Of a stretch of 64,000 nucleotides of DNA, positions 2,252 through 64,000 are shown piece after piece. The stretch lies in the sequence record NC_023693.1, one strand, 5' to 3'. Position numbers and translations under genes: made by a program. The notes below the pieces were generated by a model. It was not told the origin of the DNA. It saw only the letters and a list, made by a program, of their open reading frames with translations, and did not search any database. The stretch is from Escherichia phage phi92. The stretch's first letter is position 1. Every line of letters starts with the position of its first letter.

Positions 2252-4665
2252 TGGCGAATTTTCCAACATATCCTGCTACGACACTAGAACAAGGTGTTGA
2301 TCTGGTTATATTCTCGTCTAACCAGATGCATGATGTTATTAATGGGGATGCTACAGCAACTGTAGAAACCGAAACAGGTTTAATACCTACACTGCGTAAA
2401 GCACTTGTTGATAACTTCTTCTTTAAGAGTCCTGTTGCTTGGTCAGCAGGATCAACTGAAACTGTATTTAACCAGTTACGTTATTTTGAAAACGGTATCT
2501 TGAGTGGGTACTATTATGCCCCATCTGCCACTACTGCGAACCCTGTACCTATGCAGGGCACACCTGTAGGGGACAGTAACTGGACTCTGTACGCTCTTAA
2601 AACTGAACAGTTAGCTTCAGATGTGTATCCTTGGTATTTTAAAGGTGCTACAGGATATGAAACAGAAATCAGTCCTCCTTATATCTTTGATAATGCTATT
2701 GTCACCATTAACGGTGTAATTCAGATTCAAGGTGAAGCATTTACTATCAAAGATAGTAAAATTATTCTGGCAGAACCATTAGGTTTAGATCCGTCTACTG
2801 GTCTACCTAACAAATTGTTTGCTTTTATTGGTAAAACAACAGCCTCTACTTCTTACGTAGAGAAAAACCTTTTGTCATCTACCACTGGTGCAGCAATGGT
2901 TGGTCTTCCATCTGGAGGCAACCTGTTACAAGCTCAATACTTTGTAACGCCTGAGCAGTTTGGTGCAATTGGTGATGGAGTTACCGATGATACTCAAGCA
3001 ATTTTAAAAACTATTACTTTCGCTAACACGAATAACATTCAAGTACGTGCAGATAAGAATTATAGATTCACAAGCTCAATTGCTATGTCTGGTGTTCGTT
3101 GGTATGGTGGTACATTCACTGGTAACGGTGGAACAATGATTTCTACTGTGTCCTGTTGGATGGAAAACGTTCGCTTTGAAAAATGTTATGTTAAGATGTT
3201 AGGTGGTGATTGCCGATTCTATCGTAATATCTTCTCCAACGCAACATCTACAGCAGCATTCTTAATGCAAGCAATGACAAGTGAAGGTACGTTGGACTTC
3301 AGTTACAACGAAATGTATGGTTGTAAATATGCGATCCTGCAACAAGGTACTGGAGAAGTAATGACCTATGGGCGTTACTCTAACAACTATATTCACGATA
3401 TCAAAGGTGATGCTATTGAACTTAACGTAGTTCAAAAACACTACACTGAAGGTTTGATTATCGAGAATAACCACATTGCTAACGTAGATGCTTCTGGACA
3501 AGGTGCAAACTGGGGTATTGGTATTGGTGTAGCAGGTAGTGGCCCATATGGTGTTGATGTTCCTGATTCACAATATGTACGTAACTTCAGTATCGTTGGG
3601 AATAGGGTTTACAATTGCCGTCAATGTCTACACGTTGAAATGGGTAAAAACTTCACGATACGTGATAATGAAGTTTATCCTAACACAGCAGTTTCAACAG
3701 GTACAGGTTTAACTACTTGTGGTGTTGCATTATACGGATGCCAAGATTTTGAAGTTGATGGTTTAACTGGTTATCTGCTTAATGATCCATCTGTTTCAAC
3801 ACGCATGGTCTTTATTGACTGGGGTGTTAACAATGGTAGATATGCGGGGCCACCAATTAACTTTACAATTAAGAATTTGGATATTCCAGAATCTTCAATT
3901 GAGATTGCAACATCTGGATCAGATGCCTGGGAAAACTCTACAATTGTTAGTAATATCAATTGTAATGTTTTTAAATGGCGTGGGCTACCATCTAGCTCTA
4001 CCTTTAATAATATTCGTTGCCGTAGTATTGACTTTATTGGTCAACACGGAAGCGGAGAAGGAAGTGGTGGCGGTTTCTATACTCGCAGCCAATTCACGTA
4101 TATGAAGTGGGTAGGATGTACAGCACTTAGCGGAGATGAAACAACAGTTTCTTTTGCTAAAATCTACACTGATCGTTGCGATCAGGTTGGAAATAACTTT
4201 GGTGTTCCAACTGCTGTTGATGGTACAGGTCATCGTGGGCCAGTTTTAACTACTATTTCTGAACAATATTTTACAGCTTATGATGAATTCCCAGGTGGGC
4301 GTGAATTCCCTACTGGAACAGTTATTCATTGTGCAAGCGGTAAAAAACATGTTGTTACAGTAGGTGGTGCTTTCTTTAGTGACAACGAGAAAATAAAAGC
4401 AACTGTTACAGGTCAAACCTATCTACAGTCTAATGCTTTAAACTGGGCTAGTAATGGCTACGCTAAAGCAGCAGGTACTAAGATTGTTATTCCAGGTGCA
4501 GGTGCAAATGGCGGCGATCTTGTGACAACTATAGCACGTGCTACATACGTGACAAATAGTTTGTACACAATAGATATTGCAGATCCAATTGTAACACCTA
4601 CAGCAGAGAATACACAAATTAAAGCTCTGAATCCTGTTACTTTTGTTACTGTCAATAATGCTTAA
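2251..4665 (+). CDS. tailspike / depolymerase with pectate-lyase-like beta-helix
   Basis: 804 aa; motif FGAIGDGVTDDTQAI typical of pectate-lyase-fold tailspikes; repetitive G/N/T/V-rich beta-strand segments. Confidence 0.65.
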   Translation: MANFPTYPATTLEQGVDLVIFSSNQMHDVINGDATATVETETGLIPTLRKALVDNFFFKSPVAWSAGSTETVFNQLRYFENGILSGYYYAPSATTANPVPMQGTPVGDSNWTLYALKTEQLASDVYPWYFKGATGYETEISPPYIFDNAIVTINGVIQIQGEAFTIKDSKIILAEPLGLDPSTGLPNKLFAFIGKTTASTSYVEKNLLSSTTGAAMVGLPSGGNLLQAQYFVTPEQFGAIGDGVTDDTQAILKTITFANTNNIQVRADKNYRFTSSIAMSGVRWYGGTFTGNGGTMISTVSCWMENVRFEKCYVKMLGGDCRFYRNIFSNATSTAAFLMQAMTSEGTLDFSYNEMYGCKYAILQQGTGEVMTYGRYSNNYIHDIKGDAIELNVVQKHYTEGLIIENNHIANVDASGQGANWGIGIGVAGSGPYGVDVPDSQYVRNFSIVGNRVYNCRQCLHVEMGKNFTIRDNEVYPNTAVSTGTGLTTCGVALYGCQDFEVDGLTGYLLNDPSVSTRMVFIDWGVNNGRYAGPPINFTIKNLDIPESSIEIATSGSDAWENSTIVSNINCNVFKWRGLPSSSTFNNIRCRSIDFIGQHGSGEGSGGGFYTRSQFTYMKWVGCTALSGDETTVSFAKIYTDRCDQVGNNFGVPTAVDGTGHRGPVLTTISEQYFTAYDEFPGGREFPTGTVIHCASGKKHVVTVGGAFFSDNEKIKATVTGQTYLQSNALNWASNGYAKAAGTKIVIPGAGANGGDLVTTIARATYVTNSLYTIDIADPIVTPTAENTQIKALNPVTFVTVNNA

Positions 4666-8837: not shown

Positions 8838-9525
8838 TTAGTCGTTCCTCCGCTTGCTTAAAAATATTTACATCGGCTTCACAGCCAAAGTATTCTCTAC
8901 CTGTTAAAAGTGCCGCAACTTGTGTTGTTGCACTTCCAGAGAAGAAGTCTAAGACTACATCTCCTTCGTTGGTGTGTATATTAATAAGGTCACAAAACAA
9001 AGTCAAGTGTTTTTGTGTTGGATGAAAACGATCTGCTCCTTGATAGATAGGATACTCAAACACACCCTTATGGTAGGAAGCATTGAAGGTTGGCTTCGAA
9101 CCTTTAACACAAACAATAGCCATCTCTTTAGCGTTACTAAGATAGTTAACACCACTGTTGATGGGTACAGGGTTTGTTTTAATCCATTCAATAGTACGGA
9201 ACATACGAAAACCAAGCGGTTCAAGGATTTCACGTAGCTCCTGGATCTTCCAGATATCATACCAAACTATGCAAGTACCACCTTTTCTAAGCACCCTGTA
9301 GGCTTCTTTGAATACTTCTTTAAAGTAAGGAATATCTACAACATCCCAATCACCAAAGTTGTAAGATACACGGAATCTATCCGTATCTTTTCCAGTCGGC
9401 TCTCCAGATTGAAAATTTGTGTCACGAGAAATAGCATATGGTGGGTCAGTAAGAATCAAATCTACACTATTGCTTTCGAGGGTTTGCAGGTAGTTTAATG
9501 CGGTGTTGTTTACAAATTCGCTCAT
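8794..9525 (-). CDS. DNA methyltransferase (N6-adenine or N4-cytosine, DPPY type)
   Basis: Motif IV LILTDPPYA precedes motif I VVLDFFSGSATT; RBS aaggag; no restriction endonuclease gene recognised nearby. Confidence 0.7.
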   Translation of the reverse strand: MSEFVNNTALNYLQTLESNSVDLILTDPPYAISRDTNFQSGEPTGKDTDRFRVSYNFGDWDVVDIPYFKEVFKEAYRVLRKGGTCIVWYDIWKIQELREILEPLGFRMFRTIEWIKTNPVPINSGVNYLSNAKEMAIVCVKGSKPTFNASYHKGVFEYPIYQGADRFHPTQKHLTLFCDLINIHTNEGDVVLDFFSGSATTQVAALLTGREYFGCEADVNIFKQAEERLNEYTEQQNHPESTD

Positions 9526-9545
9526 TATATCTCCTTCAAAGAAAA

Positions 9546-9565
9546 GGAGCCGTTAGGCTCCTTAT
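9546..9565 (-). terminator. terminator hairpin
   Basis: GGAGCC-GTTA-GGCTCC with T-rich tail on the - strand, just downstream of the SSB-like gene. Confidence 0.45.
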
Positions 9566-9585
9566 ATTCACACAATACTTAACTA

Positions 9586-10533
9586 TTAGAAACAGTGCAG
9601 GAAGTTTCGACCATACTGCAAACCAATAGGAGCAAATGGGATATCATCATCGAAATCTTGAACAACAGGTTCTGATTCTTTCGGTGCTGGCTCTTTCTTC
9701 TCTACTTTTTTAGTTTCTTTCTTAACTTCTTGTACTGAGGTAGACATTCCACGGATAGCAGCAGCTACTTTATCAGACAAAGCAAGAACTTCACGAGCAG
9801 CTTCAATAATCTCTTCTGCCGTTACAGTTTTACCTGTATGATCACGACAAGCGTTAAGAATTGCGTGTCCAACTGAAGCACCAAGATCATAGTCAGTCGC
9901 AGCAGCGCCACGATCTTTAGCAATTTCTGCTTTCAGAGTAACAGTTGCAGATTGTACCACACCAGCCAAGTCGAAAGCATCACCTTTCACACCAGCACGT
10001 AGAAGCTCCAGAGCGCCGTTTACAGCGTGTCCTGTTTCAATCCCTACGGTATCACGTTTTTTGTAGTTAGGCTTGCTACCTTCGTTATTAGATGGCTTAT
10101 TTCCACCTTTTGAAGAAGATTGTGCTTGCTGAACACCTTCTGTTGAAAGAACAGTGATTTTACCTTTAGAGGAGTTGTAGTATGTTTTGCCATTCCATTC
10201 GGAAGGTTTAACATCTATAGTTACTTCTACACCTTTTTCGATAGTAATCCACTTATCACCATCTTTAACTTGCAGGTTTTCATGTTCTGGGTGCAGTTTA
10301 ACTTCACCTAGGCTAACCCAAACACCTTTATCATCAGCACCAGCACCTTTCTCTTTAATAAGCAGAGATGCTTTGTGAGTTGATTCAATTTTCTTATCTG
10401 GCTGACCTGCAACCTTAATATAAGAGACTTTCATTTCATCAAACTTATCCAGTTTGACATATTCAACGATACCTTCAGCCCAGAATGCTTCTTTTTTAGT
10501 ACGACGGTCGATTTCAGAATTAATTACTGGCAT
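9586..10533 (-). CDS. ssDNA-binding-like protein with SSB C-terminal-tip motif
   Basis: 315 aa; RBS gaggag; contains DFDDDIPF, identical to the acidic tip of bacterial SSB, near the C-terminus; Gly/Ser-rich linker before it. Confidence 0.45.
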   Translation of the reverse strand: MPVINSEIDRRTKKEAFWAEGIVEYVKLDKFDEMKVSYIKVAGQPDKKIESTHKASLLIKEKGAGADDKGVWVSLGEVKLHPEHENLQVKDGDKWITIEKGVEVTIDVKPSEWNGKTYYNSSKGKITVLSTEGVQQAQSSSKGGNKPSNNEGSKPNYKKRDTVGIETGHAVNGALELLRAGVKGDAFDLAGVVQSATVTLKAEIAKDRGAAATDYDLGASVGHAILNACRDHTGKTVTAEEIIEAAREVLALSDKVAAAIRGMSTSVQEVKKETKKVEKKEPAPKESEPVVQDFDDDIPFAPIGLQYGRNFLHCF

Positions 10534-35164: not shown

Positions 35165-35398
35165 CATTACGTGCTGCTGCATGTCACCATGCAGATCAGA
35201 CTATATCTTCATGCTTAAAGCATGTCTACCATTTGGGGTGTCATAGGCTTACACCCTACGCTGCTACATTCATCACAGCTAGTCGTTAGGCATTTCGTAA
35301 CAGTACCCCCTTCTTCTGTGTTGGGAGTTCTGTTACGTTTAGCACGGGATTGTCTCGTTGAGAGTTCCCCCGTTTAGGCAGATTTTACATGAGCAGTT
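35165..35398 (-). ncRNA. group I intron (T4 td/nrdD-like), ORF-less; splice sites approximate
   Basis: About 235 nt interrupt nrdD; - strand reads ...TCTGCCTAAACGGGGGAACTCTCAACGAGACAATCCCGTGCTAAAC... closely resembling the conserved core of the T4 td intron as recalled from memory. Confidence 0.6.
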
Positions 35399-36263
35399 AT
35401 AGTTTACCCATGCTTGTGACGCGACCATCTGAAGATCCTGTAACTTCTTTGTTTAAAGGTACAGAGATAAAATCAGGATAAATGCGTTCAGCACAACACT
35501 CCATTGCCAGTTGCTTCAAATCATAGTTTGGATCGCCAGCTTTCATGTTAACACCATCTTCCAAGAAGAAGATAACTTTAGGAAACACAGGAGTTACCCT
35601 ATCTTTTCCTAATCCTTGTTTGTGCACCATTAGGTAGTTTTTAGTGATCATTCTACCAAAAGCAGAGGTATCCAAACCTAAACTAATTGTTATAAAAGGT
35701 GACTGACCATTTACACTCATTAGAGTGTTCACCTGGTAGATTAAAGTTTGCATTGCATCATAGACCTGTTTATCTACCATACGCATAGCAATATCATAAT
35801 CGCCAACATCGGCATATATTTTATTAAAACTTGCTTTAACGTATTGACTAAGCCCAGTATCAACATGTGCACAAGTTTGTCCACCATATTGGCTAGAAGC
35901 TACTGCTTGAATAATTTGAGTTAGGACAGTAGTCGCTACACCGATAGATTTTGGTTTTTCAATATGTGCATTACCAATACGGAAACCGTTCTCAAGCATA
36001 TCTTGGTAATTTACCAGGCAACAATTAGTTAAAGGTGAGAGTAAATAATCTAAATCGTGAATGTGACCATACCCACTTTTATGCCATTCTGCCAGATCTT
36101 CCGGTAAAATATGGGTCATTGCCATGTGCTTGCTTAGGATACCTGCTAGTAAATCTCGGTGAGTATTAACAATCATTGCAGGTTTGTTTGCATTTTCACG
36201 AGTAAATTCTTCGGATGTTTGTTCGAGGAATCCGATTACATCCTCATATAGTTTTTGGGTCAT
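35399..36263 (-). CDS. nrdD: anaerobic ribonucleoside-triphosphate reductase, exon 1
   Basis: 288 aa N-terminal portion ending a few codons into the intron; contiguous in function with exon 2. Confidence 0.7.
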
Positions 36264-51386: not shown

Positions 51387-51938
51387 ATGCGGATTACTGA
51401 TAAGTATGTGTTCTTCTTCTCGGCAAAAGATGAATTTAGCAACTGGTATCTATCATCTTTTATTGAACCTTTAGCACCCAAGTATAATAACTCTATTACA
51501 AGTTCTGTTGAATTTACTTGTGTGGAACAATATATGATGTGGAGAAAAGCATGTTTGTTTTATGATTACAATATTGCATCTTCTATTTTAATCGGAGATC
51601 TCAGATATACAGGAGAAAAAGAACAAGCATATTATAAGCGACTAGGTAGATTAGTTAAAGATTATGATGAAGACACCTGGACTTCTTTACGGGAGAAGAT
51701 TGTCAAACGTGGTTTGTATCTTAAATACACACAAAATGAAGATCTCAAAAATAAACTTATCGCTTACGCAGATAAGGAGTTCGTAGAGGCAAGCCCCTAT
51801 GATTCTATTTATGGTATCAAAATGGGGATGTGGGATCGGGACGTGGAAAATAAGGATTGTTGGAAAGGACAAAATCTTTTAGGAAAATGGCATACAGACC
51901 TTGCTGTTTATCTAAAAACACAATCTGATATTTCCTGA
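51387..51938 (+). CDS. NADAR (YbiA-like) domain protein
   Basis: FFFSAKDEFSNWYLSSF, EQYMMWRKA and EASPYDSIYGIKMG blocks match NADAR signature positions; RBS aaggagg. Confidence 0.5.
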   Translation: MRITDKYVFFFSAKDEFSNWYLSSFIEPLAPKYNNSITSSVEFTCVEQYMMWRKACLFYDYNIASSILIGDLRYTGEKEQAYYKRLGRLVKDYDEDTWTSLREKIVKRGLYLKYTQNEDLKNKLIAYADKEFVEASPYDSIYGIKMGMWDRDVENKDCWKGQNLLGKWHTDLAVYLKTQSDIS

Positions 51939-52154
51939 TATTTTGAAAATTTTTATTTTTATAAAAAGGGGTGTGGGTTTCATGTACGGAAATTCACCCT
52001 CTGCACAGTATACCCAGAGTAAGTATTATTCTATACTCTGTTAATAAAGTATTTAATTTGTTTGTTGGACTATGGTATCTGGTTTTTAAAAGACACATTA
52101 TCTCTTAACTACTATTTATAACAGAACAGTAAAATCATTTTTATAAAAAGGACA

Positions 52155-52355
52155 AAATTATTTAAAGTTTTTACTAGATTTTTGGCTACAAATTTTGAAA
52201 ATGAAAAGTTCAAGTTTGGTCAAAATTATTTAAAGTTTTTGTACGTATTTCTATCCAGATTTTGAAAATGAAAACTTCAATTTTTTAAAAATTCCCCAGT
52301 TTATTTAAAGTTTTTTTGCCTTTTTCCGTAGAAAAATCAAAAATGAAAAGTTCAA
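52155..52355. repeat. three tandem imperfect direct repeats (iterons, about 70-75 bp)
   Basis: Each unit contains TTATTTAAAGTTTTT ... TTTGAAAATGAAAA(G/C)TTCAA. Confidence 0.6.
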
Positions 52356-52378
52356 TTTCGTGTTTTTATGGGTGTGCG

Positions 52379-52500
52379 GATGATAATCATTCTCATTTGT
52401 AAATGAGAATCATTATCATTTAATTATGTAAGTGATAATCATTCTCACTAAGAGAATGAGAATCATTAGCAAATGAGAATTTTTCTCATTTAGAGAATAA
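52379..52500. promoter_or_regulatory. cluster of palindromic operator-like sites (Fur-box-like)
   Basis: GATAATCATTCTCATTTGTAAATGAGAATCATTATC near-perfect 36-bp palindrome, plus GATAATCATTCTCA...GAATGAGAATCATTAGC and AAATGAGAATTTTTCTCATTT. Confidence 0.45.
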
Positions 52501-52753
52501 CGCGCAGGGGTGGTGTTTGTCTCGCGCTCCCGTGTCCCCTCGCCATACAATAAGAATAGCATAACCAACAACAAAAGCAAGCGATTATTTTTATCTTTAC
52601 ATTTCTTTACAAATTTATTTTAGACGAGCTACCGGCGATCAACCTTCCAACCAGTAGTGCCCTGGTATGTTAGCCCCGCCTTTACGCCGTGGGGGTGGCG
52701 CTTCCTCTTCTGTATGTAAAACAGTATAAGCCCGATCCCTGGGCTTGTCAAGA

Positions 52754-53020
52754 TTATTTTTTGTTTTCTTGCCAGGATAGGACACCTAACCAAAAATACA
52801 TGTCGCCCCGCGCCCCTGGTGGGATCTTGCTTTCCCCGCCGCCACTGCAAGCCCATAGATAACCATTTGCGAACGTATCAAAATGATCTATCTCTTCCAC
52901 CTTATGATCGCCCAGGTTGAGAACGGTTTCAACCTTTAAGCCCGTTGCGCTTGCTACCTGGTGCACCGTGCCGCCTTGCCAGCCCAATGAGTGCATGAGG
53001 TGTGAAGTAGTATTTGTCAT
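52754..53020 (-). CDS. hypothetical ORF in GC-rich island (uncertain)
   Basis: 88 aa ORF with weak RBS; local GC content visibly higher than the surrounding phage DNA. Confidence 0.25.
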   Translation of the reverse strand: MTNTTSHLMHSLGWQGGTVHQVASATGLKVETVLNLGDHKVEEIDHFDTFANGYLWACSGGGESKIPPGARGDMYFWLGVLSWQENKK

Positions 53021-53131
53021 GGTATCGCCCTTTCTTTGATGTGCGCCCTGGTTGGCGCGGTAGAAAGATAATAGCCCTTTCCTTTATAGATAGCAAGCAA
53101 AAAAGAAATGAAAAAAGATTAAAAAAAGGGG

Positions 53132-53160
53132 TTGACGTTCCTCACCTGGTAGCGTATTAT
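53132..53160 (+). promoter_or_regulatory. sigma70-like promoter
   Basis: TTGACG, 17-bp spacer, TATTAT. Confidence 0.4.
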
Positions 53161-53287
53161 TCATCTTGTCGAGGGGGGCGAGGCACAACGACAATAAACA
53201 AAAGGAGGGCGCAATGCAGGACGGGCAAAGGTGAGGATCTCCACAATCCACCGTCACAATAACATTACTTATAAAAGGTTGATAACG

Positions 53288-53392
53288 ATGATCAAGAAAG
53301 AAAACAGCTTGACGGTTGGAACGATTAACGCTATTTTGTTAGCCGTTCCAGTGTGGATCACTGTAGCAATTGTTGTTTCAATCATTCTATAA
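53288..53392 (+). CDS. small membrane peptide (34 aa)
   Basis: MIKKENSLTVGTINAILLAVPVWITVAIVVSIIL; below track size cut-off. Confidence 0.35.
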   Translation: MIKKENSLTVGTINAILLAVPVWITVAIVVSIIL

Positions 53393-53402
53393 GGCGTACA
53401 CT

Positions 53403-62163: not shown

Positions 62164-62547
62164 ATGAGCAATATCATCAACCTGGCGGCGACTGTAAACG
62201 GTAAAGATTTTAACGGCGCTGTAGATCGTGATCCTATGTGGTGCTTATCAGTGTTTAAAGGCGATCTGGTTGAAGTTAGAACAACCGAAGGGTATAGCGA
62301 TGATTATAAATGTGAGATTCATTTGCACAACTGGTACACGGGTAAAACTTATGCGCTGAATCATGCGTTTATCGGGAAAATTGAATATCGCGAGATGATC
62401 GACGAGGAAACCGGGCAAGATTTTAGCGACTATGTTTATATTCGTTCAGAAACATTAGCCGAACGTTTGATCGAGAAAATGAAAGCAAAAAATAAAATTA
62501 ATTTAACTCATTGGATTGATATAACAAACGATCCAGCTTATCAGTAA
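62164..62547 (+). CDS. hypothetical early protein
   Basis: 127 aa ORF, RBS gagga. Confidence 0.45.
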   Translation: MSNIINLAATVNGKDFNGAVDRDPMWCLSVFKGDLVEVRTTEGYSDDYKCEIHLHNWYTGKTYALNHAFIGKIEYREMIDEETGQDFSDYVYIRSETLAERLIEKMKAKNKINLTHWIDITNDPAYQ

Positions 62548-62563
62548 ATAACATTTCATACCA

Positions 62564-62589
62564 GGGCGCTTATTGCGCCCTTTCTTTTT
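62564..62589 (+). terminator. rho-independent terminator closing the early array
   Basis: GGGCGC-TTATT-GCGCCC followed by TTTCTTTTT. Confidence 0.6.
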
Positions 62590-62803
62590 ACCTAAATAAA
62601 GATGATAGCTTTTACCTATCAAAAACGTTCACCGAAAAAAGTGAATAGATCGCGGTATCGAGCTAATCAAGGAGCAGATGAACAACCATACCATGAAGAT
62701 CATAAGGCGCTTACAACGTGTTTTAGACCGCTTATTTTTAATTTCTCAATGTAACTATCGGGCAAAAACAGCCTTTTTCTTGTCTTTCCTCTTAAATGAT
62801 AAT

Positions 62804-63948
62804 CATTCTTATTTATAGCTGATTATTTATGCAATAAACTGCATAATGCAATAATGATAATCATTCTTAACTTAAGACCATCTAACCTATAAAATAATAA
62901 GCTATCTAACTAAATTAAACCTAATTATCTCACTTTTATTTATAACTTACTGTTATTATCTCATTGATAACATTGTATTAAACAACAATAACTAATATAA
63001 ATCATTACTAAGCTAACTATAATCTATCTAACCCTTAAAACTACAATTATAATCTATCAAATTGTTGCACAAAGTAACTATTAAATTGTTAGTAACATTA
63101 CTAAATAATTTACATCCTACTTATTTATGATCTAATCTTTACCTCCCTATCTATTACCTAAATAACCATTTCATGTAGTAATCATTTCATACAATAACTA
63201 TAACAAGAAATATAATTCGCAAGCGTATCATTAGCAGCCTATGCCGGACACATAGGCGGCTAATAATAACGCAACTACACACCCCACATAATAACCATCA
63301 CCGATAGTTATTATTTGTGCTTATGTAGCTTGCAACAATTGCAAGCGCAACAATATACGAGAGTATATTGTATTCCCTTACATTGTTGCGGTGCGTTATT
63401 ATTAGCTAATGTTTAGAACATTGGCTATAATATAAGCTAAATAATAAGCTATGCAATAATAAACATGGTGAATAATGACATTGATGATCATAATGCGCCA
63501 CCCTCCAGGGGGCGCTATGTGTACACAAAGAAATCTTTCTTGTCAAGAAAAATATCATCACTATTGCGCAAAATTATTTACATCTGAATAGATGATTTTT
63601 CATACTATTGCCCCCATAATTATCTTTATTTGTTACCCCTAAATATCCTATTTGTTGAGCCTACTTTCTTAAAAGCGCAATAAATCAGAATTATCTTGAT
63701 TTTTAGTCGGTTTTATAGTATAGAAAATATGTAAATGATAATCATTATCAGCTATCTTCCACGGGTGGCACTATTTCACGCCAGATCATTTCATTTGACA
63801 AGGTGTATATAGATGTTTAGACTTGCCAAGCCATTGATTTACTTAGAATTTATCTGTTTTGTTGTGAGTAGTACCTTTCTTGCTCAGAAAATAATCAAAA
63901 GTCTTATAAGTCATTGAATGATAATGCAAATGATAATTATTCTCATTG
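62804..63948. promoter_or_regulatory. non-coding AT-rich region with four Fur-box-like sites and short repeats
   Basis: AAATGATAATCATTCTTA at 62804 and 62852, AAATGATAATCATTATC at 63733, AATGATAATGCAAATGATAATTATTCTCATTG at 63916; recurring (A)TCTATCTAAC motifs; no ORF of 60 aa or more. Confidence 0.4.
63259..63406. repeat. nested inverted-repeat structure
   Basis: Exact 14-bp inverted repeat GCTAATAATAACGC / GCGTTATTATTAGC enclosing palindrome GCTTGCAA-CAA-TTGCAAGC and inverted repeat CGCAACAAT...ATTGTTGCG. Confidence 0.5.
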
Positions 63949-64000
63949 ATATTTGAGGGGGACGGTCGGCAGAAATCGGGGGGCGCTGAAAATCGCGTTA

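Follow-up and report, generated by a model that had tools for sequence, protein, structure and literature searches.

Clustered Fur-box sequences in the terminal and early control regions of the virulent phage phi92 and its relatives as candidate operators of host Fur

The 64,000-nucleotide stretch of Escherichia phage phi92 DNA analyzed here (NC_023693.1), which we refer to as the window, contains an early array of small plus-strand genes at 53.4-62.5 kb. Both sides of this array are flanked by non-coding DNA carrying sequences that closely resemble the operator of Fur, the iron sensor of the bacterial host. Four sites, boxes A to D, lie in the non-coding region to the right of the array, with boxes C and D inside a direct terminal repeat (DTR). 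A further group of five, cluster 1, lies in a 1.4-kb gene-poor region upstream of the array and had been missed in a preliminary description of this DNA. Two forms of the Fur consensus were used for comparison, the 19-bp sequence GATAATGATAATCATTATC and the 7-1-7 inverted repeat TGATAATnATTATCA. The sites are as follows:

62792-62811, unstranded: Fur box A, TGATAATCATTCTTA, with the 13-mer core AATGATAATCATT exact at 62795-62807
62850-62869, unstranded: Fur box B, AATAATGATAATCATTCTT, 16/19 to the consensus
63731-63750, unstranded: Fur box C, 17/19, with a perfect 7-1-7 repeat, 78 bp inside the left DTR boundary
63920-63950, unstranded: Fur box D, three boxes overlapping in 6-bp steps, 55 bp in from the right DTR boundary
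52376-52490, unstranded: Fur-box cluster 1, five boxes at 52381, 52404, 52433, 52457 and 52474

Box C gives the closest match at the right end, as its 19-mer (63731-63749) reads GTAAATGATAATCATTATC and agrees with the 19-bp consensus at 17 of 19 positions, while its 7-1-7 repeat, TGATAATCATTATCA at 63736-63750, has no mismatches. Boxes B, D and A score 16/19, 15/19 and 14/19, with two, one and two mismatches respectively to the 7-1-7 form. The best 7-1-7 match within box D is TGATAATTATTCTCA at 63931-63945, and the conserved blocks TAAGTCATTGAAT and TTGATATTTGAGG lie on either side of the box. The five boxes of cluster 1 are packed within 115 bp and carry 1, 1, 1, 2 and 3 mismatches. The preliminary description had claimed a 17 of 19 match for the sequence AAATGATAATCATTATC, and both the sequence and the score stand, although it occupies 63733-63749 and does not extend to 63750. 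Likewise, the additional copies it placed at 62804, 62852 and 63916-63948 do exist at slightly shifted positions (62792-62811, which covers 62804; 62850-62869; and 63920-63950), and no open reading frame (ORF) of 60 amino acids or more is present within 62548-64000, the longest being 51 amino acids. Several of the sites are accompanied by overlapping secondary matches displaced by 6 bp, at 63920/63926/63932, 52376/52382, 52399/52405 and 52428/52434. Fur clusters on the bacterial chromosome are built from overlapping or adjacent sites in a 3- or 6-bp register (PMC2189734).

The location of boxes C and D can be defined from the genomes of close relatives. The 1.45 kb following position 62550 is 93-96% identical to some 50 genomes of Justusliebigvirus, phi92-like E. 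coli myophages of the Stephanstirmvirinae. In Salmonella phage UAB_1 the match to the window reaches the final base of the linear record, the last 343 bp of which are annotated as the right DTR, and the same 343 bp are found at the start of the record. The UAB_1 repeat starts with AGCCTACTTTC, corresponding to window position 63658, and ends with GAAAATCGCGTTA, the last bases of the window. The UAB_1 alignment and DTR annotation therefore place the window as the right-hand 64 kb of a Justusliebigvirus genome, with 64000 as its physical end. The resulting terminal features are:

63658-64000, unstranded: DTR of 343 bp, annotated at both ends of UAB_1; 64000 is the last base of the window
63654-63661, unstranded: left DTR boundary motif GTTG^AGCC, cut between 63657 and 63658, equivalent to the UAB_1 DTR start
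63993-64000, unstranded: right DTR boundary motif TCGCGTTA^(AGCAC), reading GCGTTA^AGCAC across the cut (UAB_1 position 343/344)

The proposal in the preliminary description that this region borders a genome terminus is therefore borne out, since 63658-64000 corresponds to the 343-bp DTR of UAB_1 and the window stops on the conserved right cut site. The comparison with sequenced genome termini that it called for is also in agreement, as the close relative BME3 has a DTR of 342 bp determined with PhageTerm (PMC12210895). Furthermore, the records of PD06, PHB05 and W22 end near the left DTR boundary, and several records start or stop near 63635-63658. In UAB_1 the repeat has the hallmarks of a true terminal repeat, that is, the same sequence at both virion DNA ends with defined boundaries. 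For the phi92 window phage we infer the duplication, because the second copy falls outside the window. On a concatemer map, a second small-gene array comes after the DTR.

The sites are held in place across genera. For the window phage and four other lineages drawn from annotated GenBank phage records, namely Phapecoctavirus ZCKP1 and ukendt, phiWec179, and Klebsiella phage KP13-26, we aligned all of the non-coding DNA lying between the last early gene and the first gene past the terminus. The mean identity of the reference to the other lineages is 0.51, yet boxes A, C and D are kept at homologous positions. The position of box A is retained in all four lineages and lies at the 91st percentile of conservation among 15-bp windows; box B is partly retained, being good in KP13-26 and degenerate in Phapecoctavirus. 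Both DTR ends share the boundary motif GTTR^AGC (left, GTTG^AGC; right, GTTA^AGC), whose two copies lie 329-344 bp apart in the five lineages, and the terminal repeat probably arises by recognition or cutting at this motif. Relative to these cuts, box C lies 76-78 bp inside the left one (76 bp in ZCKP1) and box D lies 55-59 bp inside the right one. Because they are inside the terminal-repeat cut sites, boxes C and D are expected at both ends of the virion DNA.

The enrichment of the motif is pronounced and confined to the two regions that flank the early array. All nine sites with at most two mismatches to the 7-1-7 repeat lie in 51940-53370 or 62548-64000, compared with about 0.8 expected by chance in the window. 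These two non-coding stretches make up around 4% of the window, and the remaining 60 kb or so is without a single site at this threshold. For the 19-mer at up to three mismatches, five matches were found in the window against 0.03 expected, and for the 13-mer core the corresponding numbers are 30 and 5.6. When Markov shuffles of the 32% G+C non-coding region alone were used as the background, four sites with at most two mismatches were observed against 0.08 expected. The five lineages each carry two to four sites where shuffles preserving local dinucleotide composition give 0.04-0.08 (P <=0.001). The complete UAB_1 genome tells the same story, with 12 sites observed against 1.85 expected; these comprise the same two clusters, the DTR boxes being counted twice, and three isolated weak matches that correspond to the chance level.

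The phage sites are also able to retrieve the Fur operators of the host. A symmetric weight matrix was built from the nine phage sites and run across two segments of E. coli K-12, each 50 kb long. In the segment containing the ent and fep genes, the top six matches all fall within the fepB-entC, fepD-entS and fepA-fes intergenic regions, classical sites of Fur control, and in the second piece the fhuA promoter is ranked second. The top-ranked match in this second piece is ATTGAGAATCATTCTGAAT, at K-12 positions 189581-189599 in the map-rpsB intergenic region. The term Fur-box-like, under which the sites were introduced, is thus well justified, as the motif acts as the E. coli Fur operator motif in scans of E. 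coli DNA and is conserved across genera. Three properties of a Fur operator, the consensus match, the overlapping-cluster form and the retrieval of known host operators, are all found in the phage sites. Moreover, tblastn with E. coli Fur as the query revealed no Fur homologue in Stephanstirmvirinae, Vequintavirinae, T5-like (Demerecviridae) or Alcyoneusvirus records, which makes host Fur the obvious protein to read the motif. Common to the phage sites is a longer 10-1-10 form, AAATGAnAAT-C-ATTnTCATTT, that extends past the minimal Fur core.

Arrays of the same motif are not restricted to relatives of phi92. A BLAST search with the 122-bp cluster 1 sequence found them in hundreds of records, including T5-like phages, with arrays at around 9-10 kb that carry a DTR or LTR label, and jumbo phages of Alcyoneusvirus. 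In phage Gostya9 a dense array occupies a non-coding gap of the terminal-repeat region at 2980-3250, and Klebsiella phage Muenster has seven sites in the first 3.9 kb of its 20-kb terminal repeat, among them a cluster at 785-1100 (0.8-1.1 kb from the left end) and sites at 1078 and 2427. In T5 itself (NC_005859.1), site density over the 112 kb scanned peaks in the 500-bp bin 9500-10000, where a cluster at 9555-9725 lies inside the annotated injection stop signal (iss), and a perfect box is found at 233-247, 233 bp from the left end. The motif is therefore clustered in lineages (phi92-like, rV5-like, T5-like and jumbo) that share only the enterobacterial clade of their hosts. The palindromes of the T5 iss have been catalogued in a detailed comparative study, which suggests that DnaA binds there and makes no mention of Fur (10.1101/866236). 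Within open-access coverage, literature searches on phi92-like, T5-like and lytic phages turned up no report of Fur boxes in them, the stx1 promoter of temperate Stx1 phages being the one phage case to surface; an older description in a subscription journal is possible.

Several other features share the right-end region with boxes A to D:

62164-62547, plus strand: last gene of the early array, 127 amino acids, T4 gp30.8 homologue; the non-coding terminal region begins after it
62563-62581, plus strand: intrinsic terminator of the early array, AGGGCGC-loop-GCGCCCT with a T run, from a terminator scan
62828-62845, unstranded: palindrome TATGCA-N6-TGCATA between boxes A and B, conserved across genera
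62870-63187, unstranded: very AT-rich, variable spacer containing short direct repeats such as AAYTATAATCTATCWAA
63188-63216, plus strand: putative promoter CATACA-17-TATAAT, from reading of the sequence, directly upstream of the structured element
63237-63406, plus strand: structured element of about 170 nucleotides, a hairpin and a long closing stem around a three-way junction, 250 bp before the DTR
63795-63823, plus strand: early-type sigma-70 promoter TTGACA-17-TAGACT, 10/12 in a promoter scan, between boxes C and D

The product of the last early-array gene shows 42% identity to T4 30.8 and 100% identity to a phage AMO3598 sequence by tblastn, and the stem and T run of the terminator that follows are kept in all five lineages. 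The palindrome between boxes A and B overlaps a -10-like CATAAT element (TATAAT in Phapecoctavirus) and is possibly part of a promoter or a site for another dimeric factor. Around 135 bp of the variable spacer is missing from Phapecoctavirus. The putative promoter at 63188-63216 went uncalled by the consensus scan because its -35 matches at only 3/6 positions; other genera retain a -10-like element here. The promoter between boxes C and D is weaker in UAB_1 and is therefore not strictly conserved. Specific Fur-repressed promoters at boxes C and D were considered and set aside, the spacings of the -35/-10 pairs being inconsistent across genera in a hand alignment. A promoter scan around the boxes found no strong sigma-70 promoter overlapping any of them.

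The element at 63237-63406 has the character of a conserved fold. RNAalifold predicted six helices with 49 pairs in all, and compensatory double changes support 12 of these pairs. Pairing holds in 98.2% of cells, and the observed covariation was reached by 0 of 500 shuffles. As a control, sliding the pairing partners by 1-3 columns reduced pairing to 20-48%, and the fold of the single sequence gave z = -7.4. No Rfam family matched the element at the gathering threshold or at E <=1, and at the same thresholds a combined tRNA and Rfam search returned nothing in either non-coding region. We therefore regard it as a new covarying structured element, a candidate non-coding RNA (ncRNA) or a single-strand DNA signal, with which the predicted fold is equally compatible. 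Together, the early-type promoter, the conserved palindromes and the structured element make a regulatory hub at this end of the genome, as the preliminary description had suggested, plausible. Its mention of an origin finds no such backing in the right-end non-coding stretch, as no DnaA box (TTWTNCACA) is present in 62500-64000 or in 51900-53400, and no iterons accompany boxes A-D.

The surroundings of cluster 1 are similarly organized and include a second candidate RNA:

~52596-52716, minus strand: candidate ncRNA, with a conserved promoter at 52751-52723 (TTGACA-17-TATACT, 11/12), read towards cluster 1

Cluster 1 is conserved in Justusliebigvirus, Phapecoctavirus and Vequintavirinae. The neighboring segment at ~52596-52760 is 72-88% identical by BLAST across the Stephanstirmvirinae and several genera of Vequintavirinae (4MG, CB7, Mydo, PBES02 and Klebsiella relatives), and every lineage with this segment also carries Fur boxes at the equivalent position, some 100 bp downstream of the candidate ncRNA. 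The consensus fold of this deeply conserved segment contains many minus-strand G-U pairs, and it is therefore probably an ncRNA read towards the boxes. In the Vequintavirinae, the conserved last box of cluster 1 fills the spacer of a promoter-like element, TTGAAT-18-CAGAAT, that is aimed at the ncRNA; this arrangement is degenerate in the phi92 window. Directly upstream of cluster 1, at 52153-52370, an AT-rich unit of 67 bp occurs two to three times in tandem. These repeats could be origin iterons or protein-binding repeats, and at the same place the Vequintavirinae have different repeats (TCTCGATCG...). The lone leftward gene of the region (52754-53020, minus strand) is an 88-amino-acid ORF, a plausible protein equivalent to UAB_1 gp231, and ends at a hairpin that overlaps the promoter of the candidate ncRNA. 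The early array itself carries about 17 strong, near-consensus TTGACA-16/17-TAnnnT sigma-70 promoters, all on the plus strand and with an exact TTGACA, which amounts to about one for every small gene. Promoters of this kind are typical of early genes read by host polymerase. Elsewhere in the window, 35177-35451 (minus strand) is a group I intron (Rfam RF00028, 70.6 bits) that, by its position, probably splits the gene for the large subunit of anaerobic ribonucleotide reductase, which is annotated as two pieces in UAB_1.

The identity of the motif with the host Fur operator, its enrichment, its positional conservation and the absence of a phage Fur homologue are matters of observation. The reading we prefer is that these sites are genuine host Fur operators, kept by selection in a virulent phi92-like phage, and on the sequence evidence we judge this modestly probable. 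Within this reading, occupation of the sites by host Fe-Fur in vivo is likely, whereas we put forward only tentatively that local iron-responsive transcriptional control in the terminal control regions may be the effect under selection. In our model, phage DNA enters an iron-replete cell and Fe-Fur dimers would bind the 7-1-7 inverted repeats cooperatively. Bound Fur would then act in the terminal control regions as a local repressor or as a roadblock for host RNA polymerase, covering weak embedded promoters and stopping read-through from the early array into the structured element and the terminal repeat. Conversely, under iron starvation apo-Fur would leave the sites and transcription would be released. 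We favor local repression or a roadblock because of the placement of the sites past the terminator of the early array, the promoter geometry in the Vequintavirinae and the neighboring ncRNA candidates. The conserved -10-like element flanked by boxes A and B is also in keeping with this model. A box within a promoter spacer, as in the Vequintavirinae TTGAAT-18-CAGAAT element, is the classical geometry of Fur repression.

A number of observations weigh against the operator model. The promoter-like matches over the boxes are weak (8-9/12), are no more common than in shuffled sequence, and are inconsistently conserved across genera. Nor is there an iron-related gene directly downstream of the boxes. 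Plaques form on iron-replete laboratory media, and Fur binding therefore cannot block infection. Likewise, the roughly 17 strong early promoters are without Fur boxes, and so Fur is not a general controller of the early genes.

Several other explanations have been considered for the same set of sites. The best of these, although in our view unlikely, is that the phage DNA acts as a Fur sponge, in which around 11 strong sites per genome copy (more if overlaps are counted) would titrate host Fur during replication without any local regulation. The expected consequence would be derepression of iron uptake and of the RyhB iron-sparing response, supplying iron to the iron-dependent ribonucleotide reductases of the phage. 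Multicopy Fur boxes do derepress the Fur regulon, which is the basis of the Fur titration (FURTA) assay, and E. coli has only a few thousand Fur dimers. The packing of five boxes into 115 bp, the presence of many strong sites without a clear promoter partner, and the class Ia and class III ribonucleotide reductases encoded by the phage family all fit such a role. However, decoys need no fixed positions, and the boxes are fixed to within a few bp relative to the DTR cuts and to conserved neighbors. T5 carries the boxes yet degrades host DNA within minutes, so derepression of host genes would be useless there, and in general the effect of a sponge would arrive late in the cycle.

That fixed spacing is instead what would be expected if Fur served as an architectural host factor, with end-bound protein helping terminase to find or cut the DTR boundaries in the way IHF does at lambda cos, arresting or organizing incoming DNA in the manner of the T5 iss, or marking the start of replication. 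Boxes C and D lie at conserved distances of ~77 and 55-59 bp inside the GTTR^AGC cuts in several genera, and the T5 iss cluster, the perfect box near the T5 left end and the left-end cluster of Muenster are similarly placed. Cluster 1 is 11.6 kb, or 7.85% of the genome, from the right genome end, and the first-step-transfer fraction of T5 is 7.9%, although this match is possibly a coincidence. An architectural role would, however, make essential steps dependent on iron, and no DnaA boxes or iterons lie beside boxes A-D. We also know of no precedent for Fur in packaging, injection or replication, nor of two-step injection in the phi92-like family. For these sites we consider such a role rather improbable, somewhat more so than a sponge.

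It is more doubtful still that the palindromes are operators for a DNA-binding protein of the phage, such as an early repressor or a terminase accessory, and that their likeness to Fur boxes is incidental or a by-product of AT-rich palindromes. The many small early proteins of unknown function encoded beside the sites provide candidates for such a reader, and the 10-1-10 form exceeds the minimal Fur core. Against this, the motif recurs in T5-like, jumbo, phi92-like and rV5-like lineages whose proteomes are unrelated, it specifically retrieves host Fur operators, and a perfect 14/14 agreement with the 7-1-7 consensus would be unlikely to arise accidentally. Finally, a compositional artefact of AT-rich non-coding DNA, or a functionless selfish short repeat spread by recombination, can be dismissed as highly improbable despite the 32% G+C of the region and the possibility that BLAST-level similarity of arrays between phages reflects exchanged DNA, as local shuffles preserving dinucleotides give 0.04-0.08 sites against the two to four observed, and the sites persist at homologous positions while their flanks diverge and are absent from the other ~60 kb of the window.

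Set beside known systems, the phi92 sites share with the E. coli Fur operators (fepA-fes, fepB-entC, fhuA and fhuF) the 19-bp and 7-1-7 motif and the overlaps at 6-bp offsets. Their clusters span 20-115 bp, within the range of 19-142 bp seen on the E. coli chromosome (PMC2189734). They differ in showing no clear overlap with a strong promoter, where 83% of chromosomal clusters overlap one (PMC2189734). They also differ in lying on the non-coding terminal and early DNA of a virulent phage, with no iron gene downstream.

To our knowledge, Fur boxes on phage DNA are known essentially only from the stx1 promoter of temperate phages. There, in the lambdoid Stx1 phages, a host Fur operator makes a phage-borne function iron-responsive. 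A Fur-binding site is mentioned for stx1 in the literature (PMC10042803). The stx1 case is a single operator at the promoter of one prophage cargo gene, whereas phi92 has about ten clustered sites in a strictly lytic phage. Unlike the stx1 operator, these sites are linked to the genome termini and the early control regions, and their conservation extends across subfamilies.

The T5 iss, which forms Repeat Region 3 of the left terminal repeat, provides a closer parallel in its architecture. It too is a large conserved non-coding region bordering a terminal repeat, preceded in T5 by a terminator and by the early genes that enter first. Palindromes and direct repeats, for which host-protein binding has been proposed, abound there (10.1101/866236), and in the present scan its palindromes include Fur-box-like sequences. 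In phi92, two non-coding regions of 1.4 kb, rich in repeats and palindromes, flank the early array in a comparable manner and have Fur-like palindromes in common with T5 and Gostya9. However, the iss has paired DnaA boxes in inverted repeats and the phi92 regions have none, the T5 repeat is 10 kb long compared with 343 bp for the phi92 DTR, and two-step transfer is known for T5 and not for phi92-like phages.

Two further systems bear comparison. In virulent cyanophages, PhoB boxes upstream of pstS and phoA, and NtcA sites, make phage expression follow the nutrient status of the host. These boxes are at identifiable promoters of auxiliary metabolic genes, whereas those of phi92 are at termini and ncRNAs with no evident regulated gene. 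In lambda, the IHF site of cosB places a host DNA-binding protein at a fixed distance from the terminase cut, and a comparable constancy is seen in the spacing of boxes C and D from the DTR cuts. IHF, however, is a constitutive DNA bender, while Fur is a metal-dependent repressor with no known packaging role. A host-regulator operator on phage DNA is a known kind of element, whereas conserved clusters of such operators in strictly lytic phages, at a terminal repeat and beside candidate ncRNAs and recurring in T5-like and jumbo phages, are undescribed in the open-access literature searched.

More broadly, it is conceivable, though we hold it less probable than not, that several lineages of large virulent enterobacterial phages, unrelated to one another, have converged on clusters of Fur operators in their terminal and early control regions, a feature so far unrecognized. 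These lineages would be the phi92-like and rV5-like myoviruses, the T5-like siphoviruses and the jumbo phages of Alcyoneusvirus, and in them Fur, and with it the iron status of the host, would gate how infection begins. The steps gated in this way could be the arrest and resumption of DNA entry, early transcription or the processing of genome ends.

The region provides a new covarying structured element next to a genome terminus as well as defined motifs for the DTR cut sites. If the sites are indeed operators, lytic phages would read or exploit the iron sensor of their host from the entry of DNA onward. This would in turn bear on the biology of terminal repeats, on the decades-old question of what the palindromes of the T5 injection stop signal bind, and on phage therapy in iron-limited tissue, phi92-like, rV5-like and T5-like phages being common therapy candidates.

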